The notes under the pieces were generated by a model, which was not told where the DNA came from, did no database searches, and was given only the letters and a program-made list of their open reading frames with translations. From NCBI RefSeq assembly GCF_048263965.1, contig NZ_JBLXDO010000017.1, positions 7,223 through 71,222 on the forward strand: a stretch of DNA of 64,000 bases, written 5' to 3'. Of the stretch, positions 382-8,926 are shown one piece after another. Within the stretch, counting starts at the first letter, position 1; each line of letters begins with the position of its first letter. The position numbers and the translations under genes were made by a program. The stretch comes from Ferrimonas sp. (GTDB lineage Bacteria > Pseudomonadota > Gammaproteobacteria > Enterobacterales > Shewanellaceae).

Positions 382-1134
382 ATGCGCTGTCCCCACACCG
401 ATGCCCTCAGGGTGAAATGTCAGGCCGTCCTCGATGTGACTGAAGGGATGATCGATCAGCAGGGGTTGATCTCATTCAAGCTCTCCCAGGTTGCCAAGGA
501 GGCGGAGATTGCCAACTCTACCTTCTATAAGCTGTTTGAGAGCAAAGAGGACCTGCTGGTGTGCTGCTTCATGCGTAACGCCACTTGCAATCACTTCGAT
601 GATTTCGAAGCCCTGCATCCGGGAATGTCTGCCATAGAGCGGGTTCTGTTGCCCATCATCTTTACCTTCGAGGCTACCTACTTCTCTCCCAGTTTCAACC
701 TGGTTCGCCAGGTGGCAGTCAACAGTCGGGTGTGGCGCCTGGCCAGTGCCGACAAGGCCAAGGCGTTTGAGAATCGCATTAACCTCTATTGGGAGAGGAT
801 CACCGGATACCTGAAGCAGGCGGTAACCGAGGGGGAACTGGTGGCGTCTGATGACGAGGTGAGGGAGCTGGCACAGGCGATCACCTTCTACCTGAGCGGT
901 GCCCTGTCCGCCTATGAGTGCCGCCTCATTGGTAAGGAGTTCCTGCAGGAGAAGCGTCAGACTCTGTTCCGGCAGCTGCAGAATGTATTCAAGCCTTACG
1001 GCTGGCGTGAGCCTCTGACCCTGGCACTGTTTGAGCGGGTGGGGGTTAGAGTACATATGTACTACCAGGCCAATCGCCGTGACTTCAACAGCTGTGCCCG
1101 CTGCATGGCGATGCAGGAGAAGCTGGGCGGCTGA
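382..1134 (+). CDS. TetR/AcrR family transcriptional regulator
   Basis: N-terminal HTH (FKLSQVAKEAEIANSTFYKLFESKEDLL); 250 aa; C-terminal CARC. Confidence 0.8.
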   Translation: MRCPHTDALRVKCQAVLDVTEGMIDQQGLISFKLSQVAKEAEIANSTFYKLFESKEDLLVCCFMRNATCNHFDDFEALHPGMSAIERVLLPIIFTFEATYFSPSFNLVRQVAVNSRVWRLASADKAKAFENRINLYWERITGYLKQAVTEGELVASDDEVRELAQAITFYLSGALSAYECRLIGKEFLQEKRQTLFRQLQNVFKPYGWREPLTLALFERVGVRVHMYYQANRRDFNSCARCMAMQEKLGG

Positions 1135-1155: not shown

Positions 1156-1218
1156 GGCTCCCCCAGGGGAGCCTTTCCTTTATATAAGGGAAACAAAAAA
1201 GGCTCCCTTGCGGGAGCC
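1156..1218. terminator. Back-to-back intrinsic terminators between convergent genes
   Basis: GGCTCCCC-CA-GGGGAGCC followed by TTT (+ strand); AAAAAA-GGCTCCC-TTGC-GGGAGCC (- strand). Confidence 0.75.
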
Positions 1219-1253
1219 TGGGCGTGTGTCAGGAGTTGAGTGTCACTTCAGCC

Positions 1254-2381
1254 TTAGAAGTAGTAGCCGAAGTTGATGTTGATGCGCTGGTCCCAGCCGT
1301 CGCCCGCTTCCTTCAGGCCAACGTGGTCATCCATCTCGGTGGAGAAGGTCATGTTCTTGCCCATCACGAAATCCGCCATGATGTACAGCGGGCCCGCAGC
1401 GATGGCAGCACCGGTGACGTTCTGGTAGCTGTTATCAAAGCTGTCGTCGTCGGTGTCAGGCGTCATCACACCGAAGTCGTTGTAGATCTTCACGCTGCCC
1501 CAGTCTGTGGGGATGGTCTTGGCGATGTTGAAGTTGTAGGCCTGGCCCTTAGAGGCGATCTCGTACTGCCAGCTCACCACGGAAACGCCGATCTTATTGG
1601 GATCCACCCCCTCCTGATTCTTGGCATCGTACTCATACTGCATCGCTTGCAGTTGGATGTTCCAACCGTTGAAGCTGGAGTCCAGGTGAGCGGCAATGGC
1701 GTAGCGGTCGCCATTGTCTTCGGTCTTGCTGTTGTAGATCTGACCCCACTGAACCGAACCACCGATGGTGGTGCTGCCGCCGTCGTGCTCCACGGTGTAG
1801 GTTTGGCGCAGGTTCAGCTGGTTGGTCTCTTCGTTGTAGTACTCGGTACCGTTGATGGTGCCGGTGTACAGGTCGGTGGCGTAACGCTTGTTTTCAGATG
1901 CGCCGTATTCGGGGTTCTTGTAGAAACCCAGGTCGGTGTGCCACTTGCCGTTGTCGAAAGTGGCCTTGATGCCCACATCATGGTCATCTTCGAAGCCCAG
2001 GTAGTAGGGGATACCAAACCACCAGCTGTTGGAGATGAAATCGCGGTTACCGAAGGGCACCTTGTTGATGCCGAACTGGATCTGCCACTCCGGGGTAGCG
2101 TCGTAGTAGCCGTAGCCGTACTTGATGTAGTGGGTGCCGGAGGTGAAGCGGTACTCGGAGGAGAGGCCCCAGTCGCCGTGCTTGCCGTTGAACTTAATGG
2201 CGGCCATGTCGAAGGTCAGATCGCCAGCCTTGTCTTTGGAGCTGTCGCTGTAGAATTTCAGGCCGTAGTTCACCCGTACGGCACCGCCGACACTGATGCC
2301 GTCTTCCTGGGCCTGGGCCACTGGGTTGAGCAGGGCGAAGATGGCACCTGCCACCAGGGAAAGCTTGGTTGCGTGTTTCAT
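1254..2381 (-). CDS. Outer-membrane beta-barrel / porin-like protein
   Basis: Start reassigned to MKHATKLSLVAGAIFALLNPVAQA (Sec signal); alternating beta-strand pattern rich in Y/F/W/G/D/N; C-terminal BAM-type signature ININFGYYF. Confidence 0.75.
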   Translation of the reverse strand: MKHATKLSLVAGAIFALLNPVAQAQEDGISVGGAVRVNYGLKFYSDSSKDKAGDLTFDMAAIKFNGKHGDWGLSSEYRFTSGTHYIKYGYGYYDATPEWQIQFGINKVPFGNRDFISNSWWFGIPYYLGFEDDHDVGIKATFDNGKWHTDLGFYKNPEYGASENKRYATDLYTGTINGTEYYNEETNQLNLRQTYTVEHDGGSTTIGGSVQWGQIYNSKTEDNGDRYAIAAHLDSSFNGWNIQLQAMQYEYDAKNQEGVDPNKIGVSVVSWQYEIASKGQAYNFNIAKTIPTDWGSVKIYNDFGVMTPDTDDDSFDNSYQNVTGAAIAAGPLYIMADFVMGKNMTFSTEMDDHVGLKEAGDGWDQRININFGYYF

Positions 2382-2440: not shown

Positions 2441-3178
2441 TTATTTTTCGAACTTGTCTTGGTTGGTGCCGTATGGACCCAGGTCCATGGCGGCCTTGCG
2501 CAGGGCGTCAACACGGTCGAACGCCTCTTCCGCTACGCGCAGGTTTTTCACATCCTTACGCCAGTAGTACTTGAAGCCGTCGAAGTGGGCGTTCTTGGGG
2601 TACCAGTACATCACGCCGAAACCCTGCTCATCGGTGATGGGGGTGTTGTGGATGGTGTTGCCGGGGATGTAGAAGTACATGCCCTTCTCCATCCACTTGT
2701 ACTGGCCGTCGGCCAGGGTGCGGGCGCGGCCGGATACGGCGTAGTAGCACTCAGGCTGGCCGTGGAAGTGGGGGGCGTGGTCAGACTTGCCGCCGTTGGT
2801 GATGCCGATAACCACAGGGGCGTCGGACAGCTCTTTCCACAGGTAGCCTACGGGCGCGTTCTCCAGCTTGCAGTCCTTGGCTTCCATGATGTTGCCGTCG
2901 TCATCCATGGTCTTGCAGAAGCGCTGGTCCTTGGCGATGGAGTCGTTGGACTTGATGGTGTTGAAGTCTACACGGCCCGCTTCCCAGTCGGCGATGTACT
3001 GTTCCACCAGAGGGTCGCGGCACTGCTCAGGCATGGTGGCCTGAGGAGAGTAGGGGGTGGAATCATAAGGGATGGCGGTAGCCTGCTGGTAGGGCAGTTG
3101 GGCGTGTTCCAGGTGGGCGTTGGCCATAACGGAACCGGAGCACAGGGCGCCGAGGATCAGTGCGAGTTTCTTCATCAT
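2441..3178 (-). CDS. Secreted cupin-domain protein, candidate DddK/DddW-like DMSP lyase
   Basis: Start MMKKLALILGALCSGSVMANA after RBS AGGAAGAG; cupin motif 1 HFHGQPECYYAVSG, motif 2 GMYFYIPGNTIH; cupin call is firm, lyase call is inference. Confidence 0.7.
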   Translation of the reverse strand: MMKKLALILGALCSGSVMANAHLEHAQLPYQQATAIPYDSTPYSPQATMPEQCRDPLVEQYIADWEAGRVDFNTIKSNDSIAKDQRFCKTMDDDGNIMEAKDCKLENAPVGYLWKELSDAPVVIGITNGGKSDHAPHFHGQPECYYAVSGRARTLADGQYKWMEKGMYFYIPGNTIHNTPITDEQGFGVMYWYPKNAHFDGFKYYWRKDVKNLRVAEEAFDRVDALRKAAMDLGPYGTNQDKFEK

Positions 3179-3243
3179 TCTCTTCCTATATATAGGTGTT
3201 GTTGTGTTTGAGGCGGCAGGCACGGTGCCTGCCGCCAAATGGG

Positions 3244-3609
3244 TTACATCTCGTCGAACCAGGTGCGGTGGCACTCGGAGCAGACCGGAGCCTTGGTCTG
3301 GTGTTCGGCGTGACAGGCCAGGCAGCTGGCGCCCTGGTTGAAATGGATGCTCTTGTGAGGATTGGCCTCCTCGAGCACCAGGTCACGGGTCACCTCGATG
3401 TCGTTGATGTTGCCGTGGCAGTCGATGCAGGCGCTGTCGTCCACATACTTGCGAGCAGAGCCCTCGTGGCAGGTTTTGCAGCCATCTTCATAAATAAACT
3501 GGTGATTGGTGCGGCCCTTTATGGCGCCCTTTACCTTGACCAGATCACCGGCCTGAGCGGTATTGCACAGGGCCAGCATCAGCCCCAGGGAGATCAGTAC
3601 TCGTTTCAT
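3244..3609 (-). CDS. Small periplasmic tetraheme cytochrome c (cytochrome c3 / ArdB-like)
   Basis: Signal peptide and four CxxCH motifs: CKTCH, CIDCH, CLACH, CSECH; RBS AGGAG. Confidence 0.92.
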   Translation of the reverse strand: MKRVLISLGLMLALCNTAQAGDLVKVKGAIKGRTNHQFIYEDGCKTCHEGSARKYVDDSACIDCHGNINDIEVTRDLVLEEANPHKSIHFNQGASCLACHAEHQTKAPVCSECHRTWFDEM

Positions 3610-3619
3610 GGCGTTCTCC

Positions 3620-5128
3620 TCAGGCGTCCGCTTTGATGGTCTTGGGCACGATCATGCCCATGGTCAGGCACTCCAGGCAGGAGGTGGAGCTCAGGCGGGC
3701 GTGGCCATGCACCCCGCCGGTTACCTCGCCAGCACCGTACAGCTTCTTGATGGGCTTCATGGTGCGGCAATCCAGCACCCGGCCACCCATGTCGGTTTTC
3801 AGGCCGCCCATGCAGTAGTGCACCTTGGGCCAGATGCGGCTGACCACGAAGGGTGGCTTGAGCTCGACGGCAGTGTCCATCTTGCGACCGAAGTCGGGAT
3901 CGGTGCGCTTGCTTACCTGGGCGTTCCATTGAGCCAGGGTCTGTTTCAGCTCGGTCAGGGGCAGGTTAAACTTCTCTGCCAGTTGCTCCAGGCTGTCGAC
4001 CTTCCAGGCCATTTCGTCCCGCAGGGCGCGGACCACACGGTCATCATCCGGGTGGTCGTTGTAGTTGAACAGCACCAGAGGGTAGGCGGGAGTACCGTCC
4101 TGATGGCGGTTTTTCATGATGGCGGTGGAGCAGGTCAGGCGGTCGGCGCGCTCGTTCATGTAACGTTTGCCGCTGAGTACGCTGACGGAGATCCCTTCAT
4201 GCCAGCCGATGGAGAGCAGGGCGTTGGACCAGCCAAAGCCGCCTTCGTCCGGAGAGCCCCAGTGGCCGGTCTGGATCATGTTCAGGTGCACGGGCAGGGC
4301 TCCGTGGGCCATGGCGGCCAGCATCACTTCGCCGGTGGCACCCAGGTGGTTGGTGCCGTCCAGGGTGGGATCCAGTGACGGGTCCACGGCGGCGCGCAGG
4401 GCCATGTTACGGGTAAAGCCGCCGGAGGCGCAGATCACCGCCTTGTTGGCCTTGATGCGGATCAGAGAGCCCGTCTTCTGGTCAGGGAAGCGATAGCCGC
4501 GGCGAACCATCACACCTTCGACCTCACCCTGGCTATTGAGGATGAAATCTTCGATGTAGTGTTGCAGGCGATACTCGACCCCCTCTTTTTTGCCGGCTTC
4601 ATACAGCTTGGTGGTGATGTCACCGCCGGTGCCGTGCTTGGTGCGGATGGCGCGGGCCTTATTGTGGCCGCCCACCTGGATGTTGAAGTTCTTGCGGAAC
4701 TCGACGCCAGCATCGACGCACATGTGGTAGGCGCCCAGGGCGTGTTCGGCGATCTGGGTCAGCATCGCCTCATCGGCCATGCCGCGGCCGGAGATCATCT
4801 GGTCCTTCACCAACTCGGCTGGGCTGTCATCGTCGATGCCCTGAGACAGCTGGATGGGGTTCTTGGGCACGGCGAACCAGCCGCCGTTGATGGCGGAGTT
4901 GCCGCCAATCACCTGCATCTTTTCCAGGACCAGGACCTTGCCCAGACCCTGACGTTTGGCATTCAGTGCGCTGGAGAGGCCGGCGAAGCCGGAACCGATC
5001 ACCAGCACATCAACCTCTTCATCCCATTTGGTGGCGGGGGCGGCGGTTGCCACCGCGGGCAATCCTGCTGCCAGGCCACCGGCGGCCAGACCGGCACCGA
5101 GTCGCAGGAATGAACGTCTGTTCGACAT
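3620..5128 (-). CDS. Tat-exported flavocytochrome c flavin subunit (fumarate-reductase superfamily enoate reductase; ArdA / methacrylate reductase-like)
   Basis: Tat motif SNRRSFLRLG; FAD-binding VIGSGFAGL; GGNSAINGG; VHYCMGG; GGVHGHARL; no fused heme domain. Confidence 0.88.
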   Translation of the reverse strand: MSNRRSFLRLGAGLAAGGLAAGLPAVATAAPATKWDEEVDVLVIGSGFAGLSSALNAKRQGLGKVLVLEKMQVIGGNSAINGGWFAVPKNPIQLSQGIDDDSPAELVKDQMISGRGMADEAMLTQIAEHALGAYHMCVDAGVEFRKNFNIQVGGHNKARAIRTKHGTGGDITTKLYEAGKKEGVEYRLQHYIEDFILNSQGEVEGVMVRRGYRFPDQKTGSLIRIKANKAVICASGGFTRNMALRAAVDPSLDPTLDGTNHLGATGEVMLAAMAHGALPVHLNMIQTGHWGSPDEGGFGWSNALLSIGWHEGISVSVLSGKRYMNERADRLTCSTAIMKNRHQDGTPAYPLVLFNYNDHPDDDRVVRALRDEMAWKVDSLEQLAEKFNLPLTELKQTLAQWNAQVSKRTDPDFGRKMDTAVELKPPFVVSRIWPKVHYCMGGLKTDMGGRVLDCRTMKPIKKLYGAGEVTGGVHGHARLSSTSCLECLTMGMIVPKTIKADA

Positions 5129-5367: not shown

Positions 5368-5730
5368 AAGAGTTTTTTCACTCCTCTCTGATTAGTAAGA
5401 AAAAAAGGTTGTGGTCTGGCCAGGTTAATGAAATGTTGCAAAGTGTTGGTGTGAAAGGTTTTCTGGCAAATCACACTGGAAATTGAGAGAGGGCTGACGA
5501 AAAAAACTGAAATCGGTGCTGGTTTTGGTTTTTGCTGGAGATTATGCCTTTCAATTTGCTCAAGCGTGGCGAATTGTTCGTTGGAAAAGGCCTGTGATGA
5601 TGCATCGGCCTGAAAACGACAATCATTCGGCCTTTACACACCAGAAATGGCGGCCTAGGTTGCTCTTTGTCACAGTGTGAAGTCGTGGCCTGAAGGAAGT
5701 AATAATCATAACTATCAATGGGTAGAACCT

Positions 5731-7311
5731 ATGACTCTGATAAAGAAAAGTGCCCTGACTGCCACTACGCTAGCGGCTCTTGGCCTGGTGAACCTTGGCC
5801 ATGCGGCTGAGATGGAACGCTATATCGTTAAATTCAAGGCAGGCAAGGGGCAAGGCGTGGCGGCCAGTGTGGCCCAGGGCAATGGCAAGGTCGAGCGTAT
5901 GCTCGCCAATCACAACGCCATGTCAGTCAGTCTGCCGGCACAGGCATTGAAGGGATTACAGAACAATCCCAACGTGGAGTACCTGGAAGCGGATGTTAAG
6001 CGGTACATGATGTCCCAGACCGTCCCTTATGGCATCCCTATGGTGCAGGCGGACATGCTGTCCGACTCTGCCGCCTCCAATACCCTGGTGTGCATCATCG
6101 ACTCCGGTTATGACGGAGGCCATGAAGATCTCAACCATAATGGCGCGGTTCAGGGTACCAATGACCCAGGCACCGGCAGCTGGAACACAGATGAAAACAG
6201 TCATGGCACCCACGTGGCCGGCACCATCGCCGGTGTGGCCAACAGTGTCGGTGTCGTGGGCGTTCTGCCCAACAACAACCTGAACCTGCACATCATCAAG
6301 GTGTTTGGTGCCGATGGCTGGGCCTACTCCTCGGGTCTGGTGGCGGCCCTGGATGCCTGTAAGGCGGCTAAGGCTGACCGTCAGCTGGACCGCATGGTGA
6401 TCAACATGAGCCTGGGTGGCTCACGCTCCAACCGCACCGAGATGCGCGCCTTCGATCAGGCGTTTGCCGAGGGAATTCTGAGCATCGCCGCAGCGGGTAA
6501 TGATGGCAACACCCGTCACTCCTACCCGGCGTCCTATGACTCCGTAGTCTCTGTGGCTGCCATCGATGAGAACAAGGCAGTGGCAGATTTTTCCCAGCAG
6601 ACTAATCAGGTCGAGCTCTCCGGTCCCGGTGTGGGTGTGCTCTCTACCGTGCCCATGAACAGCGCCGGCATATCGGATCTGACCGTCAATGGCAGCGCCA
6701 TCGCTTCTGCCATGATGGATGGCTCGCCTATTCAGTCGGTGTCCGGCGACCTGGTGGACTGTGGTACCGGCGAAGCCAGTTGCGCCGCGTCCGGCAAGAT
6801 CTGTCTGATTGCCAGGGGTAACGTCAGCTTTGCCGACAAGGTGCTCAACTGCGAAAGCAATGGCGGCATTGGTGCGGTGATCTACAACAACGAACCGGGA
6901 ATGCTTTACGGCACCCTTGGCGAGACGGCCACCCAGATTCCATCTGTGGGGATCAGTGACACCGACGGTGCCACGCTGATGGCCAGTCTGGGCACTGCCA
7001 ACCTGGCGGTTTCCACTGACCACTATGCCTACTTCGATGGTACCTCTATGGCCACGCCACACGTTGTGGGGGTCGCGGCTCTGGTATGGAGCAACAACCC
7101 CACCTGCAGCAACGCCGAGCTTCGCTCTGCCCTGACCAGCACCGCAGAAGATCTGGGTGTGGCAGGTCGTGATGATGCCTATGGACACGGACTGGTTCGT
7201 GCCTATGATGCTCATATGGCCCTGTCCAGTTGCAGTGGCGGCTCCGGTGGCGGTGACACCGGTGGTGGTGGCGGTAGCGACAAGCCGGGTAAAGGCAAAA
7301 AGAACCGTTAA
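5731..7311 (+). CDS. Extracellular S8 subtilisin-like serine protease with I9 prodomain and PA domain
   Basis: Signal peptide MTLIKKSALTATTLAALGLVNLGHA; triad IIDSG / HGTHVAG / GTSMATPH; PA insert (ICLIARGNVSFADKV); Gly-rich basic tail. Confidence 0.95.
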   Translation: MTLIKKSALTATTLAALGLVNLGHAAEMERYIVKFKAGKGQGVAASVAQGNGKVERMLANHNAMSVSLPAQALKGLQNNPNVEYLEADVKRYMMSQTVPYGIPMVQADMLSDSAASNTLVCIIDSGYDGGHEDLNHNGAVQGTNDPGTGSWNTDENSHGTHVAGTIAGVANSVGVVGVLPNNNLNLHIIKVFGADGWAYSSGLVAALDACKAAKADRQLDRMVINMSLGGSRSNRTEMRAFDQAFAEGILSIAAAGNDGNTRHSYPASYDSVVSVAAIDENKAVADFSQQTNQVELSGPGVGVLSTVPMNSAGISDLTVNGSAIASAMMDGSPIQSVSGDLVDCGTGEASCAASGKICLIARGNVSFADKVLNCESNGGIGAVIYNNEPGMLYGTLGETATQIPSVGISDTDGATLMASLGTANLAVSTDHYAYFDGTSMATPHVVGVAALVWSNNPTCSNAELRSALTSTAEDLGVAGRDDAYGHGLVRAYDAHMALSSCSGGSGGGDTGGGGGSDKPGKGKKNR

Positions 7312-7352: not shown

Positions 7353-8864
7353 TTACAGCTGGTCCTCGATAGGCAGCCACTGCAGAAACCAGGCGCCGAA
7401 TCGTCGCCAGAATCCCGCATCCGGTTCACTCTCGAGGATGGCCCCCGTTTCCATGTCATGCCATCTGAGCTCGCCCTGCTCCAGTGACAGCTTATAGGCG
7501 ACCTGTCCCAGCGCCTCTCCCAGCCCGTCGTTAACCGCCCCGGCCAGTTCGTCCGAGTGGATAAACACCCCCATCTCGGTGTTGATCTGGGCGGAGCGGG
7601 GATCGAGGTTAAAGGAGCCGACAAACAGGATGTTGCCATCAAACACCATGGTCTTGGCATGCAGGCTGGCTTGAGAGGAGGCGTTCCAGGCACCGGGTTC
7701 CAGGCCTGGCAAGCGCTTGGTTTCCCACAGCTCCACCCCAGCTTCCAGCATCGCCTTACGATACCCCTTATAACCGGAGTGCACCGCGACCACATCGGTG
7801 GCGGCCAGGGAGTTGGTGAGCACCCGGACCCTGACGCCCTGGCTGACCAGTCGGGCCAGACCTTTGACCCCTTCTTCACCGGGGACAAAGTAGGGGGAGA
7901 CCAACAGCAGGTCGTGCTCGGTGGCTTCGAAGTAGCGGGCCAGGGCATCCACCATCAGGGTGGGGATCTGCTCCTGAACTGCAGCCTTCTCCGGAGCGTC
8001 GGCCACCACATGGATCTCTGCCCAGTAGAGGGGCAGAGTCTCATCGGTCAGATGACGCACCAGAGGCGTATCACGCAAGGAGTCAATATAGGCCTGCTGC
8101 CTGGCCTGGTCCCGCTCAATCACTTCGGCAAACTCCCGGGTGATCTGTTCGGTGGAGATCTTCTCCTGCTCAGGAATCAGGTGCTCCACCCCGATGGCGT
8201 AGTCGCTGTTCCAGTAGAGGTCGAACTGGGTGGCGGTCTCGTTGACCGCCGGCCCCAGCAGCATCACGTCGAAATCCCCAAAGCTGACCTGCTGATTGGC
8301 AGCAAAGTACTCATCGCCGATGTTGCGGCCGCCGGTGACGGCCAGGGTGCTGTCTACCACCATGGACTTGTTGTGCATGCGCCGGTTGGTCCGGTCGAAA
8401 CTGCCCAACATCTCCAGTGAGCGCCACCGCCTGTTGGTAAAGGGGTTGAACAGGCGAACCTGAATGTTGGGGTGCTGGTTGAGGCGGGAGAGGGCGTCAT
8501 CCTTGCCACTTTGCATGTCATCCAGCAGCAGCCTCACACGGACGCCGCGCTCCGCCGCCTGCCACAGGCTCCAGAGCAGGGCCCGACCCGTATCATCGCC
8601 TCGATAGATGTAGGTTTGCAGGTCGATACTGCTGACCGCCTGGTTGGCCGCCAGCACCCGGATGATCAGGGCTTCACGGCCATCTGAGATGGGATAAACG
8701 CCGCTGAGTCCTGGTTGTTCATTCACCAAGGGGGCAAAGGTTTGATGCAGGGGGCTGTGGTCCGGTGCCGGCAGGCTGTGACTGGATTGCTGTTCCACCT
8801 GTGGGAGCGAGGTGGCACACCCGCCCAGGAGCAGGCATAAGAGCAACAACGGGGACTTGAGCAT
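7353..8864 (-). CDS. Phospholipase D family protein, cardiolipin synthase ClsC/YmdC-like, with lipoprotein signal
   Basis: Two HKD motifs (HNKSMVVD, HAKTMVFD); lipobox LLGGC; GGRNIGDEYF. Confidence 0.88.
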   Translation of the reverse strand: MLKSPLLLLCLLLGGCATSLPQVEQQSSHSLPAPDHSPLHQTFAPLVNEQPGLSGVYPISDGREALIIRVLAANQAVSSIDLQTYIYRGDDTGRALLWSLWQAAERGVRVRLLLDDMQSGKDDALSRLNQHPNIQVRLFNPFTNRRWRSLEMLGSFDRTNRRMHNKSMVVDSTLAVTGGRNIGDEYFAANQQVSFGDFDVMLLGPAVNETATQFDLYWNSDYAIGVEHLIPEQEKISTEQITREFAEVIERDQARQQAYIDSLRDTPLVRHLTDETLPLYWAEIHVVADAPEKAAVQEQIPTLMVDALARYFEATEHDLLLVSPYFVPGEEGVKGLARLVSQGVRVRVLTNSLAATDVVAVHSGYKGYRKAMLEAGVELWETKRLPGLEPGAWNASSQASLHAKTMVFDGNILFVGSFNLDPRSAQINTEMGVFIHSDELAGAVNDGLGEALGQVAYKLSLEQGELRWHDMETGAILESEPDAGFWRRFGAWFLQWLPIEDQL

Positions 8865-8926
8865 GATGCAGGCTCCCAATTGGAATGAACTCTAAGCCTA
8901 GCAATGGGTTAGCCTGAGTAACAAGC

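Follow-up and report, generated by a model that had tools for sequence, protein, structure and literature searches.

A predicted exported cupin with a DddK-like active site, distinct from DddY and encoded beside a flavocytochrome c in Ferrimonas

Among cupin DMSP lyases, DddY alone has been described as periplasmic. Since a gene in a 64,000-nucleotide stretch of a Ferrimonas sp. genome (hereafter the window) appeared to encode a cupin with both a signal peptide and active-site motifs of the DddK type, we asked whether this protein belongs with DddK, with DddY or with neither, and what its neighbours indicate about its function.

The cupin gene and its operon

The cupin gene, its motifs and its neighbours were located in the window as follows.

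382..1134, plus strand: TetR-family regulator (Pfam TetR_N) transcribed convergently to the operon, orthologue of SO_1415, putatively repressing the cluster
1200..1219, minus strand: terminator-like hairpin and T-run, end of the four-gene operon
1254..2381, minus strand: outer-membrane porin-like beta-barrel (ORF) with signal peptide, ending in ...NFGYYF, the final gene of the operon
2441..3178, minus strand: predicted exported cupin CDS, 245 aa, stop codon included in the coordinates (translation), SO_1410 orthologue
2567..2608, minus strand: C-terminal active-site stretch Y191-W192-Y-P194...F199...Y204, aligned to DddK Y109-W110-x-F-P113...F117...Y122
2648..2671, minus strand: cupin motif 2, Y170-I-P-G-N-T-I-H177, with the invariant H177 as fourth metal ligand aligned to DddK His96
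2744..2770, minus strand: cupin motif 1, H137-F-H139-G-Q-P-E143-C144-Y145, metal ligands and putative catalytic base Tyr (family alignment and DddK alignment)
3116..3178, minus strand: Sec-type signal peptide, residues 1-21, putative cleavage after A-N-A (read by eye)
3244..3609, minus strand: tetrahaem cytochrome c, 121 aa, four CxxCH, electron-input subunit, SO_1413 orthologue (Pfam Cytochrom_c3_2, E 1.4e-12)
3620..5128, minus strand: Tat-exported FAD flavoprotein of flavocytochrome c, 502 aa, with twin-arginine motif NRRSFLRLG, orthologue of SO_1414, putatively a 2-enoate reductase (TIGR01813 flavo_cyto_c, 521.7 bits)

The cupin frame reads from 3178 to 2441 and its ATG lies 7-8 nt downstream of the Shine-Dalgarno sequence AGGAAG. 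A longer frame starting with GTG at 3274 was rejected because all homologues begin at the MMKK/MK position. The N-terminus is MMKKLALILGALCSGSVMANA followed by H and, inspected by eye, resembles a Sec signal with an A-N-A end. Alignment of 24 homologues showed that their N-termini are hydrophobic and variable at this position, and in the AF2 model, with a pLDDT of 88.6, residues 1-30 fell below 55. On its N-terminus, the cupin is a predicted Sec-exported protein.

Analysis of the mature chain confirmed the four Cys reported in the first-pass annotation (C53, C88, C103 and C144), a fifth being located within the signal peptide; C53-C144 or C88-C103 may form disulfides. The N-terminal extension, put at about 120 aa in that annotation, measures about 87 aa (residues 22-108) in the AF2 model and consists of one helix and a hairpin, while a C-terminal helical extension of about 40 aa (residues 207-245) had been overlooked. 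The only annotation carried by all 54 homologues of the cupin is 'cupin domain-containing protein'. The MR-1 gene at L067:6547-7290 is 70% identical to the Ferrimonas cupin, which is by sequence comparison the orthologue of Shewanella oneidensis SO_1410. A functional assignment was found in the literature neither for SO_1410 to SO_1414, nor for a cupin with a flavocytochrome, nor for the Sutterella flavin reductases.

The operon is arranged in the order flavoprotein, tetrahaem cytochrome, cupin and porin and ends at the one terminator, no terminator-like site being found between the four genes. It combines a predicted exported, lyase-type enzyme with a Tat flavoprotein and a multihaem cytochrome c. 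The tetrahaem cytochrome is conserved beside the flavoprotein in 40+ loci and the TetR gene next to the cluster in 50+ loci; SO1415 has been listed with SO1410-SO1415 as its targets (PMC3424579). The porin-like gene, which gave no Pfam or NCBIfam match, is kept in the cluster of both Ferrimonas and Shewanella, with 70-99% identity, and is probably the SO_1412 orthologue. SO_1413/1414 were still counted in 2026 among the uncharacterised flavocytochrome c sets of MR-1.

Relation of the cupin to DddK and DddY

All motifs quoted in the first-pass annotation were recovered in the translation: HFHGQPECY provides H137, H139, E143 and Y145, which align to DddK His56, His58, Glu62 and Tyr64, YIPGNTIH corresponds to residues 170-177, and YWYPKNAHFDGFKY to residues 191-204. 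The DddK residues named there (His56, His58, Glu62, Tyr64 and W-x-F-P...F-x4-Y) agree with the PDB alignment and with PMC10686828. Eleven residues, H137, H139, E143, Y145, H177, W114, Y191, W192, P194, F202 and Y204, were invariant across the 24 homologues, down to 37% identity, so that the motif is more than chance. In DddK, W110 and F117 belong to the aromatic box that accommodates the sulfonium, and the carboxylate is hydrogen-bonded by Y122 (PMC10686828). Nine of the eleven functionally assigned DddK residues (H56, H58, E62, H96, Y64, Y122, W26, W110 and F117) were identical and invariant, and these nine are kept in all four cupin subfamilies. The invariant H177 and W192 are the counterparts of DddK H96 and W110, and the contacts matched in the cupin are Y204 (Tyr122), W114, W192 and F199. 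Three of the five aromatic-box residues are therefore kept; the position of DddK Phe108 is occupied by Met, Phe, Leu or Ile, and that of Tyr21 is unalignable or unconserved.

A search of the PDB with the 24-homologue profile (hmmsearch) placed DddK first (6a53, E 4.6e-9, DddK residues 21-123 covered). Foldseek searches with the AF2 model likewise returned DddK as the top six matches, with an rmsd of 1.6-1.7 A over 102 columns, 24% identity and a target-normalised TM of 0.64-0.70. The profile and fold matches support the first-pass reading of a DddK-type site on an exported cupin. At similar E-values Foldseek also returned phosphoglucose isomerases, quercetinases and KdgF; the match to the quercetinase YxaG was confined to the metal motif.

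With its DddK-like catalytic core, the cupin belongs to the superfamily of DMSP lyases and lyase-like proteins (cupin-DLL), all six active-site residues by which Lei, Alcolombri and Tawfik defined that superfamily being found, including H-x-H-x3-E-x-Y. Nevertheless, it escapes PF16867 (Pfam DMSP_lyase, DddL/Q/W type), the model that defines the superfamily, which gave no match at E <= 0.1. NCBIfam was also empty and Cupin_2 was the sole Pfam match (28.7 bits); that standard models would miss this protein had been anticipated, and the family escapes the current ddd HMMs. The paralogue cupin_p scored 21.1 bits against PF16867, for which the cut-off is 27. As PF16867 failed to retrieve it, the cupin probably belongs to a clade other than the eight described. 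Lei et al. caution that DMSP lyase is not the native activity of most cupin-DLL proteins and that the functions of most members are unknown.

DddK, the Pelagibacter DMSP/DMSOP lyase (PDB 5TFZ, 6A53), and the cupin have in common a single barrel, the ligands H, H, E and H, a catalytic Tyr two residues past the Glu, a carboxylate-binding Tyr and the Trp/Trp/Phe residues of the aromatic box. They differ in that DddK is a cytoplasmic protein of about 130 aa while the cupin has 245 aa with a predicted signal peptide, the N-terminal extension of 87 aa and the C-terminal helix of 40 aa. The cupin therefore departs from the small (about 130-150 aa), cytoplasmic, single-domain form of the DddK/DddW clade. 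Identity to DddK is only 24% over about 100 residues, the cupin has four conserved Cys that distinguish it from DddK, one of them (C144) inside motif 1, and its context is respiratory where that of DddK is SAR11-like. Its placement in the small-cupin lyase lineage, as originally proposed, is upheld by the DddK profile and fold; DMSP, proposed at the same time as the native substrate, is one candidate only.

The S. woodyi DddY with ArdAB is likewise a periplasmic cupin-motif enzyme adjoining a Tat flavoprotein and a tetrahaem cytochrome c, and the logic of the dddY-ardAB operon, in which the lyase makes an acceptor that the flavocytochrome reduces, is the one that we propose for the cupin operon. 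The shared H-x-H-x3-E-x-Y motif, predicted location and type of neighbours raised the question of whether the cupin is simply a divergent or truncated DddY. The tests run refuted this reading, in agreement with the first-pass annotation. BLASTP against S. woodyi DddY gave E 0.44 and aligned the motif residues only, hhalign of the two family profiles gave a probability of 6%, and the cupin family profile had no match to the DddY structures 5xkx and 5y4k, both of which a true DddY matches at E 4e-64. DddY was missing among the top 50 Foldseek matches listed for the cupin model. DddY, a protein of about 414 aa, has a large cap domain, whereas the helix and hairpin of the cupin extension do not form a helical cap; beyond the metal motif homology was undetectable. 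The regulators also differ, LysR in the dddY cluster and TetR in the cupin cluster.

The Ferrimonas genome itself also carries a DddY adjoining an ArdB-like cytochrome, together with a second cupin-reductase cluster. Both cupin and DddY were present in 49 of the 179 genomes of the family, while 21 had the cupin without DddY; the positive association (odds ratio 7.4, uncorrected for phylogeny) suggests a shared niche. Non-orthologous replacement of DddY by the cupin, with a complementary distribution, was rejected on the 49 genomes that hold both. No DddY was found within 10 kb of any of 60 cupin loci. In S. hanedai and S. woodyi the cupin or DddY occupies the same slot after the cytochrome gene, and the flanking reductases are different paralogues.

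Partner reductase and distribution of the module

An orthologue of the flavoprotein was present in 68 of the 70 cupin-bearing genomes (among 179 of the family), and in 63 genomes the two genes lay at most 12 kb apart, at a median distance of 3.8 kb. Seven genomes carried the reductase cluster without the cupin, and up to four lyase-reductase modules were found within one genome. Orthologues of the cupin with 60-70% identity were found in Shewanella from freshwater and sludge and in MAGs of gut Sutterella. In Sutterella the link between cupin, flavoprotein and cytochrome recurs, there with a NapC/NirT quinol dehydrogenase; the cupin is 61-68% identical, and its partner flavoprotein shares about 38% identity with that of Shewanella. 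Beyond Shewanellaceae and Sutterella (Marinomonas, Neptunomonas, Falsirhodobacter, Sneathiella, Granulosicoccaceae and Myxococcales) the cupin stands alone and its contexts gave no consistent clue.

The best PDB matches of the flavoprotein were urocanate reductase and FccA; FccA His365 aligns to Gly while the proton-donor Arg402 is retained. The flavoprotein is about 44% identical to the acrylate reductase ArdA of S. woodyi. In 43 of 43 orthologues its pocket has the sequence IQTGHW...GGFGWSN, whereas that of ArdA reads IQSGPW...GGFGY, so that the Pro and Tyr of ArdA are replaced by His and Trp. Orthology to ArdA was rejected for the window's flavoprotein, ArdA being nearest to the paralogous cluster of contig C1 (about 59-62%). 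ArdA-like reductases, which share 57-59% identity and the IQSGPW...GGFGY pocket with the proven acrylate reductase, adjoin the cupins of two paralogous subfamilies (49% and 35% identical). A mirror-tree argument was discarded, as cupin and reductase identities do not co-vary: the c3 cupin is 49% identical to cupin_w, yet it is paired with an ArdA-like reductase. Strain MR-1 has an intact SO_1410-1415 cluster and no DddY; none of the growth conditions tried, growth with acrylate included, gave periplasmic acrylate reductase activity in it.

Proposed function and competing explanations

The near-constant pairing with a putative enoate reductase, together with the DddK-like site, suggests that the cupin makes the electron acceptor of that reductase. 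We therefore infer its export, its lyase chemistry, its substrate class and its respiratory coupling, and favour, with a probability of about 0.6, a periplasmic beta-elimination lyase that would form a 2-enoate for the neighbouring reductase. The seven genomes with the reductase cluster but no cupin, and the solitary cupins beyond Shewanellaceae and Sutterella, speak against it. An onium-carboxylate substrate would enter through the outer membrane via the porin(s) of the operon. Its carboxylate would bind the metal held by His137, His139, Glu143 and His177 and accept a hydrogen bond from Tyr204, while the cationic head would sit in the aromatic box formed by Trp114, Trp192 and Phe199. Tyr145 would then take the C-alpha proton, and beta-elimination would free the leaving group and the 2-enoate. 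The latter would be reduced by the presumably co-transcribed periplasmic flavocytochrome c (SO_1414/SO_1413 type) with electrons from the quinol pool. With lyase and enoate reductase in one operon, the operon would supply its own respiratory electron acceptor. Analogous systems are dddY-ardAB with DMSP and SO_3057-SO_3056/58 with ergothioneine (bioRxiv 10.64898/2026.04.22.720169). The trimethylammonia-lyases SO_3057 and SO_3299, with the flavocytochromes SO_3056/58 and SO_3300/01, are alike in that an exported lyase makes the 2-enoate of its partner from an onium compound; they differ in that they are aromatic amino-acid ammonia-lyases (HAL/PAL family) rather than cupins, and act on histidine-betaine derivatives (bioRxiv 10.64898/2026.04.22.720169).

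Among candidate substrates DMSP and DMSOP come first, although we give them together rather less than an even chance of including the native one. Equally tentative is the fuller version of this explanation, in which a periplasmic lyase dedicated to DMSP and/or DMSOP would release acrylate for the flavocytochrome as a second acrylate reductase isoenzyme, the whole forming a DddY-independent module of DMSP respiration. DddK is the closest structure and its substrate contacts are kept, all known cupin DMSP lyases cleave DMSOP as well (PMC10686828), and the reductases beside the two closest paralogues of the cupin have the ArdA pocket. The association with DddY, uncorrected for phylogeny, and the 21 genomes with the cupin but lacking DddY point in the same direction. 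The native-DMSP reading is weakened, however, by the strictly conserved IQTGHW/GGFGW pocket, unlike the IQSGPW/GGFGY of ArdA, by the lack of periplasmic acrylate reductase activity in MR-1 and by the orthologues from non-marine Shewanella and gut Sutterella, DMSP being scarce in freshwater, sludge and gut habitats. An extra DMSP lyase would moreover be redundant in a Ferrimonas genome that already has DddY, with ArdB, and the second cupin cluster, and the Pfam DMSP_lyase model did not match. Those same observations on pocket, habitat and MR-1 favour a lyase or dehydratase for another beta-substituted or onium carboxylate of animal, plant or algal origin (e.g. a quaternary-ammonium betaine or a hydroxy-acid derivative), its product being an enoate other than acrylate for which the GHW/GW-pocket flavocytochrome would be specialised. 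The coexistence of up to four modules argues for different substrates, and a precedent of 2026 exists in the MR-1 flavocytochrome operons with betaine lyases for ergothioneine and N-methyl-hercynine (bioRxiv 10.64898/2026.04.22.720169). We nevertheless regard this explanation as the less probable of the two, as no gene of the cluster points to a candidate substrate, the site is near-identical to that of DddK, which acts on 3-sulfonio-propionates, and the partner flavoprotein in Sutterella is so divergent that a common product does not follow.

It appears improbable to us that the cupin is no lyase and only accompanies the operon, acting in the periplasm for instance as an isomerase or oxygenase, as an accessory protein that binds a metal or ligand, or in detoxification. 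Cupins are functionally very diverse, the fold search returned isomerases, quercetinases and KdgF beside DddK, most cupin-DLL functions are unknown (Lei et al.) and the cupin occurs alone in several lineages. On the other hand, the lyase site of the DddK type is distinguished by the Tyr of E-x-Y, the Tyr for the carboxylate and the aromatic box, all of them invariant, the YxaG match is limited to the metal motif, the linkage to the enoate reductase is very tight and an O2-dependent role would be ill-suited to an anaerobic respiration regulon (PMC3424579).

As for the wider implications of a periplasmic lyase feeding the reductase, it is conceivable, though doubtful, that the SO_1410-type cupin is the founder of a new periplasmic onium-carboxylate lyase family with an abundant betaine or sulfonium metabolite other than DMSP as native substrate. 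Only as a speculation would we add that, with SO_1414/1413, it may serve a new organic electron-acceptor respiration common to marine Ferrimonas and Shewanella, freshwater S. oneidensis and gut Sutterella. Where one genome holds three or four paralogous modules of cupin and reductase, each might serve a different onium compound, which we likewise hold to be rather unlikely. If true, the lyase reading would provide a second exported family with a DddK-type site, unrelated to DddY, and would widen the gene set used for estimates of microbial DMS, DMSO and acrylate, with the greatest relevance for anoxic sediments and animal guts, the habitats of Shewanella-like respirers. Whatever the substrate, a testable function is obtained for SO_1410 and for SO_1413/1414, and a general design is suggested in which paralogous modules of an exported cupin, an enoate reductase and a porin would serve the respiration of onium compounds.

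The cupin gene and its operon

The cupin is encoded by the third gene of a four-gene operon on the minus strand.

Features of the cupin operon, in order of transcription, and the facing regulator
3620-5128, minus: Tat-signal FAD flavoprotein (TIGR01813 flavocytochrome c, 522 bits)
3244-3609, minus: tetrahaem cytochrome c, 10 nt downstream of the flavoprotein gene
2441-3178, minus: cupin, ORF P0002 (translation of 245 aa)
1254-2381, minus: porin-like barrel, after a 59-nt spacer following the cupin
1200-1219: terminator-like hairpin, one for the operon
382-1134: TetR gene, convergent with the operon

The ATG start at 3178 is shared by all homologues, which do not use the upstream GTG proposed by the ORF finder, and is preceded by the ribosome-binding site AGGAAG at a distance of 7-8 nt. 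The 65-nt spacer between the cytochrome and cupin genes contains a perfect GC-rich hairpin without a T-run (GGCGGCAGGCA-ccg-TGCCTGCCGCC, 3212-3236, minus strand), which may act in mRNA processing or stability, or as an attenuator setting the cupin:reductase ratio. The operon is adjoined by a gene for an exported subtilisin-like serine protease of 544 aa (5677-7311, plus strand), and near it lies that of a lipoprotein-like 508-aa protein with two phospholipase-D/cardiolipin-synthase-like halves (7353-8879, minus strand), both as judged from their translations.

The motifs quoted in the first-pass annotation, which had proposed a periplasmic DMSP lyase with a DddK/DddW-type site, were all found in the protein: HFHGQPECY provides H137, H139, E143 and Y145, YIPGNTIH corresponds to residues 170-177, and the C-terminal stretch YWYPKNAHFDGFKY to residues 191-204. 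The Sec signal is likewise predicted, the N-terminus MMKKLALILGALCSGSVMANA showing by eye an n/h/c layout that ends in A-x-A, and the four Cys reported for the mature chain are C53, C88, C103 and C144. The N-terminal extension had been overestimated at ~120 aa; the AlphaFold2 model (mean pLDDT 88.6, pTM 0.82) gives ~87 aa for the mature protein and also has a C-terminal helical extension of roughly 40 aa, absent from the earlier description. Alignment of 24 homologues (at least 37% identity) revealed that H137, H139, E143, Y145, H177, W114, Y191, W192, P194, F202 and Y204 are invariant, and the motif is therefore conserved rather than coincidental. In this alignment the four Cys are almost invariant; C53 and C144 are kept in all four cupin subfamilies, the DddK position matching C144 being Ile, and C88 and C103 flank a beta-hairpin predicted in the model, which suggests that C53/C144 and C88/C103 are putative disulfides that would fit export.

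Relationship of the cupin to DddK and DddY

Cupin_2 was the sole Pfam match (28.7 bits, cut-off 27.2), neither the Pfam DMSP_lyase model nor NCBIfam matched the window's cupin, and 54 of its 54 database relatives are named only 'cupin domain-containing protein'. Searching solved structures with the family profile identified DddK as the best match (6a53/5tfz, E 4.6e-9 to 5.8e-9) over DddK residues 21-123, almost the whole enzyme; matches to quercetinase and phosphoglucose-isomerase cupins were confined to the surroundings of the metal motif, DddQ gave E values of 0.4-2.4, and DddY structures were not matched. Comparison of the predicted structure with DddK, a check suggested along with the original proposal, agreed: the top six Foldseek PDB matches were DddK, with an rmsd of 1.7 Å over 102 columns, 24% identity and a target-normalised TM of 0.64-0.70.

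DddK binds its metal through His56, His58, Glu62 and His96, uses Tyr64 as catalytic base, hydrogen-bonds the carboxylate through Tyr122 and holds the sulfonium in a cation-pi box of Tyr21, Trp26, Phe108, Trp110 and Phe117 (PMC10686828). The metal ligands align with H137, H139, E143 and H177 of the cupin, Tyr64 with Y145, Tyr122 with Y204, and Trp26, Phe108, Trp110 and Phe117 with W114, M190, W192 and F199, the Tyr21 position being unalignable. Thus nine of the 11 functionally assigned residues are identical, and each of the four cupin subfamilies retains these nine. All six residues that define the superfamily of DMSP lyase and lyase-like cupins (cupin-DLL; Lei et al.) are present, within which the window's cupin would form an exported, extended clade; DddY is the sole periplasmic cupin DMSP lyase in reviews to date.

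The S. woodyi DddY locus has the order AcuI, a 665-aa protein, LysR, ArdA, ArdB and DddY in genome G172, which we take to be strain ATCC 51908, the order matching the published locus. This DddY (414 aa) matched the Acinetobacter DddY structure with E 4e-64. The window's cupin matched it by BLASTP with E 0.44, at motif residues only, and hhalign of the cupin and DddY family profiles gave a probability of 6%; a divergent or truncated DddY is ruled out by these values, and the first-pass view that the protein is not DddY was borne out.

Distribution and gene neighbourhoods

A census of 179 genomes of the family (cupin orthologues at ≥64% identity; flavoprotein orthologues at ≥62%, next best paralogue ≤46%) revealed the cupin in 70 and the flavoprotein in 75 genomes, both in 68, and in 63 the two lie no more than 12 kb apart on a single contig (median distance 3.8 kb). 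In the other five genomes that have the pair the two genes lack this proximity, and at least three of these (G125, G142 and G158) are fragmented assemblies; the two genomes with the cupin but without the flavoprotein are one with a truncated cupin copy (G101) and a fragmented assembly (G157). DddY was present in 75 genomes, 49 with the cupin and 26 without it, and 21 genomes, MR-1 included, had the cupin without DddY, these being raw genome counts that ignore kinship. The cupin is thus tightly tied to the SO_1414-type reductase (68/70), and with both genes in 49 of the 179 genomes it is ruled out as an alternative to DddY.

Decay is seen in some lineages: the G101 cupin orthologue (C1:337245-337721) is cut down to residues 85-243 in a genome without a reductase orthologue, and the G116 flavoprotein orthologue (C1:204128-205627) has an in-frame TAG. 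Seven Shewanella genomes (loci L075-L079; G054, G029, G126, G100 and G063 among them) keep the SO_1414/1413-type reductase, TetR and porin, and tblastn found neither a cupin nor a cupin remnant in them. Evidently, the reductase can be of use without the cupin.

Scanning one genome per species yielded 60 cupin loci, none of which had DddY within 10 kb of the cupin. The arrangement is conserved in Ferrimonas and Shewanella, in two orders, TetR, flavoprotein-cytochrome-porin-(second, DcaP-like porin)-cupin and flavoprotein-cytochrome-cupin-porin. Both cupin-reductase clusters are adjacent in many Shewanella (L012, L013, L019, L020 and others), with the TetR gene alone between them, as an ~11-kb island holding two to three porin genes. 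Locus L007 (JAHVJZ010000007.1, labelled Marinobacter nauticus DP3N21-5) has a gene order like that of Ferrimonas balearica, and its proteins are 77-81% identical to those of the window, which points to mislabelling or contamination of the assembly, or to recent transfer.

The family is small: a search of 1.84 billion representative proteins gave only 28 clusters (50% identity) with E ≤ 1e-30. Orthologues 54-74% identical to the window's cupin were found in Marinomonas, Neptunomonas, Falsirhodobacter, Sneathiella, a Granulosicoccaceae strain and a Myxococcales MAG, with no reductase or informative neighbours near the cupin in these. Sutterella gut MAGs have orthologues too, and at least one of these MAGs (L056) has a complete module of Tat flavoprotein (~38% identical), c3-type cytochrome, cupin and NapC/NirT quinol dehydrogenase.

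The window's genome, 99% identical to Ferrimonas futtsuensis at the cupin gene, carries DddY plus two cupin-reductase clusters. Its DddY (C2:279204-280457; L068:7202-8461, minus strand) has the motif HNHAISEIY, is 63% identical to that of S. woodyi and lies at the contig end, directly beside a tetrahaem cytochrome of ArdB type. The second cluster, on contig C1 (cupin at C1:93664-94302; L002, L069:5819-11185), comprises TetR, flavoprotein, tetrahaem cytochrome, exported cupin, exported DUF3299 protein and porin; its flavoprotein is 59% identical to S. woodyi ArdA, and its cupin is 35-37% identical to the window's and scores a sub-threshold 21.1 bits on Pfam DMSP_lyase. Some Ferrimonas have a third cluster, with a cupin 49% identical to the window's, and Shewanella G057 holds the DddY cluster and both cupin clusters.

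The partner reductase and the proposed function

Aligned to FccA, the window's flavoprotein retains the Arg402 position of the proton donor and carries Gly where FccA has His365, as does ArdA according to the ArdAB authors. It is ~44% identical to S. woodyi ArdA, with the pocket IQTGHW...GGFGWSN (invariant in 43/43 orthologues), and is ruled out as the ArdA orthologue by the C1-cluster and third-cluster paralogues, which are 57-59% identical to ArdA and share its pocket, IQSGPW...GGFGY (ArdA to itself, 100%).

Genome G098, which we take to be S. oneidensis MR-1, has the matching gene order: SO_1410 cupin, SO_1411/1412 porins, SO_1413 cytochrome, SO_1414 flavoprotein and SO_1415 TetR, with the cluster intact. 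PMC3424579 assigns to the regulator SO1415 the targets SO1410-SO1415 and no others, in its 'anaerobic respiration' category, and only two MR-1 flavocytochromes, SO_1413/1414 not among them, are characterised according to a 2026 preprint of the ArdAB group. In a second MR-1 cluster (L071:7632-10406, C1 ~3.78 Mb), the ArdA-like flavoprotein, apparently SO_3624, has an aberrant N-terminus without a Tat signal and abuts a 404-aa transposase-like ORF, which is consistent with the preprint's view that it is possibly a pseudogene; the cupin, cytochrome and DUF3299 genes beside it look intact.

The cupin is proposed to act in the periplasm as a metal-dependent beta-elimination lyase whose active site is of DddK type; the co-encoded flavocytochrome c would reduce its 2-enoate product. 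That an exported cupin lyase supplies a 2-enoate to the flavocytochrome c is the best-supported reading (probability about 0.6). Such lyase-then-reductase logic was shown by experiment for DddY-ArdAB (ArdAB study) and for the betaine lyases SO_3057 and SO_3299 with their flavocytochromes; the proposed module would follow it with a cupin, whereas SO_3057 and SO_3299 are HAL-type. The literature search found neither a functional assignment for SO_1410 nor a cupin-flavocytochrome link. That the protein is not a lyase is improbable.

DMSP and/or DMSOP as native substrate is a tentative proposal, and a native substrate from among the other onium or beta-substituted carboxylates, with another enoate as product, is rather unlikely; both are sub-cases of the lyase reading, and the readings overlap and do not sum to one. 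Because two sister cupin subfamilies pair with acrylate-reductase-like flavoproteins, acrylate-forming (3-onium-propionate) lyase chemistry is supported for the family as a whole, and by reductase similarity the C1-cluster cupin is possibly the stronger candidate for forming acrylate. The window's subfamily pairs with a reductase whose pocket is remodelled, and the pocket evidence cuts both ways. The ArdAB study reported that MR-1 lacked periplasmic acrylate reductase activity, both with and without oxygen and whether or not acrylate was supplied; SO_1414/1413 therefore either has no activity on acrylate or is not induced by it. A role confined to marine DMSP is made less likely by the presence of the cupin in gut Sutterella and in Shewanella from freshwater and sludge; DddY, though, is likewise found in non-marine Alcaligenes and Acinetobacter.

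The cupin is best classed as an exported, extended cupin-DLL clade that would serve in a respiratory module of an established kind, lyase plus flavocytochrome. MR-1 offers a direct test of it, and the cupin clusters hint that several paralogous modules for respiring onium compounds may exist.
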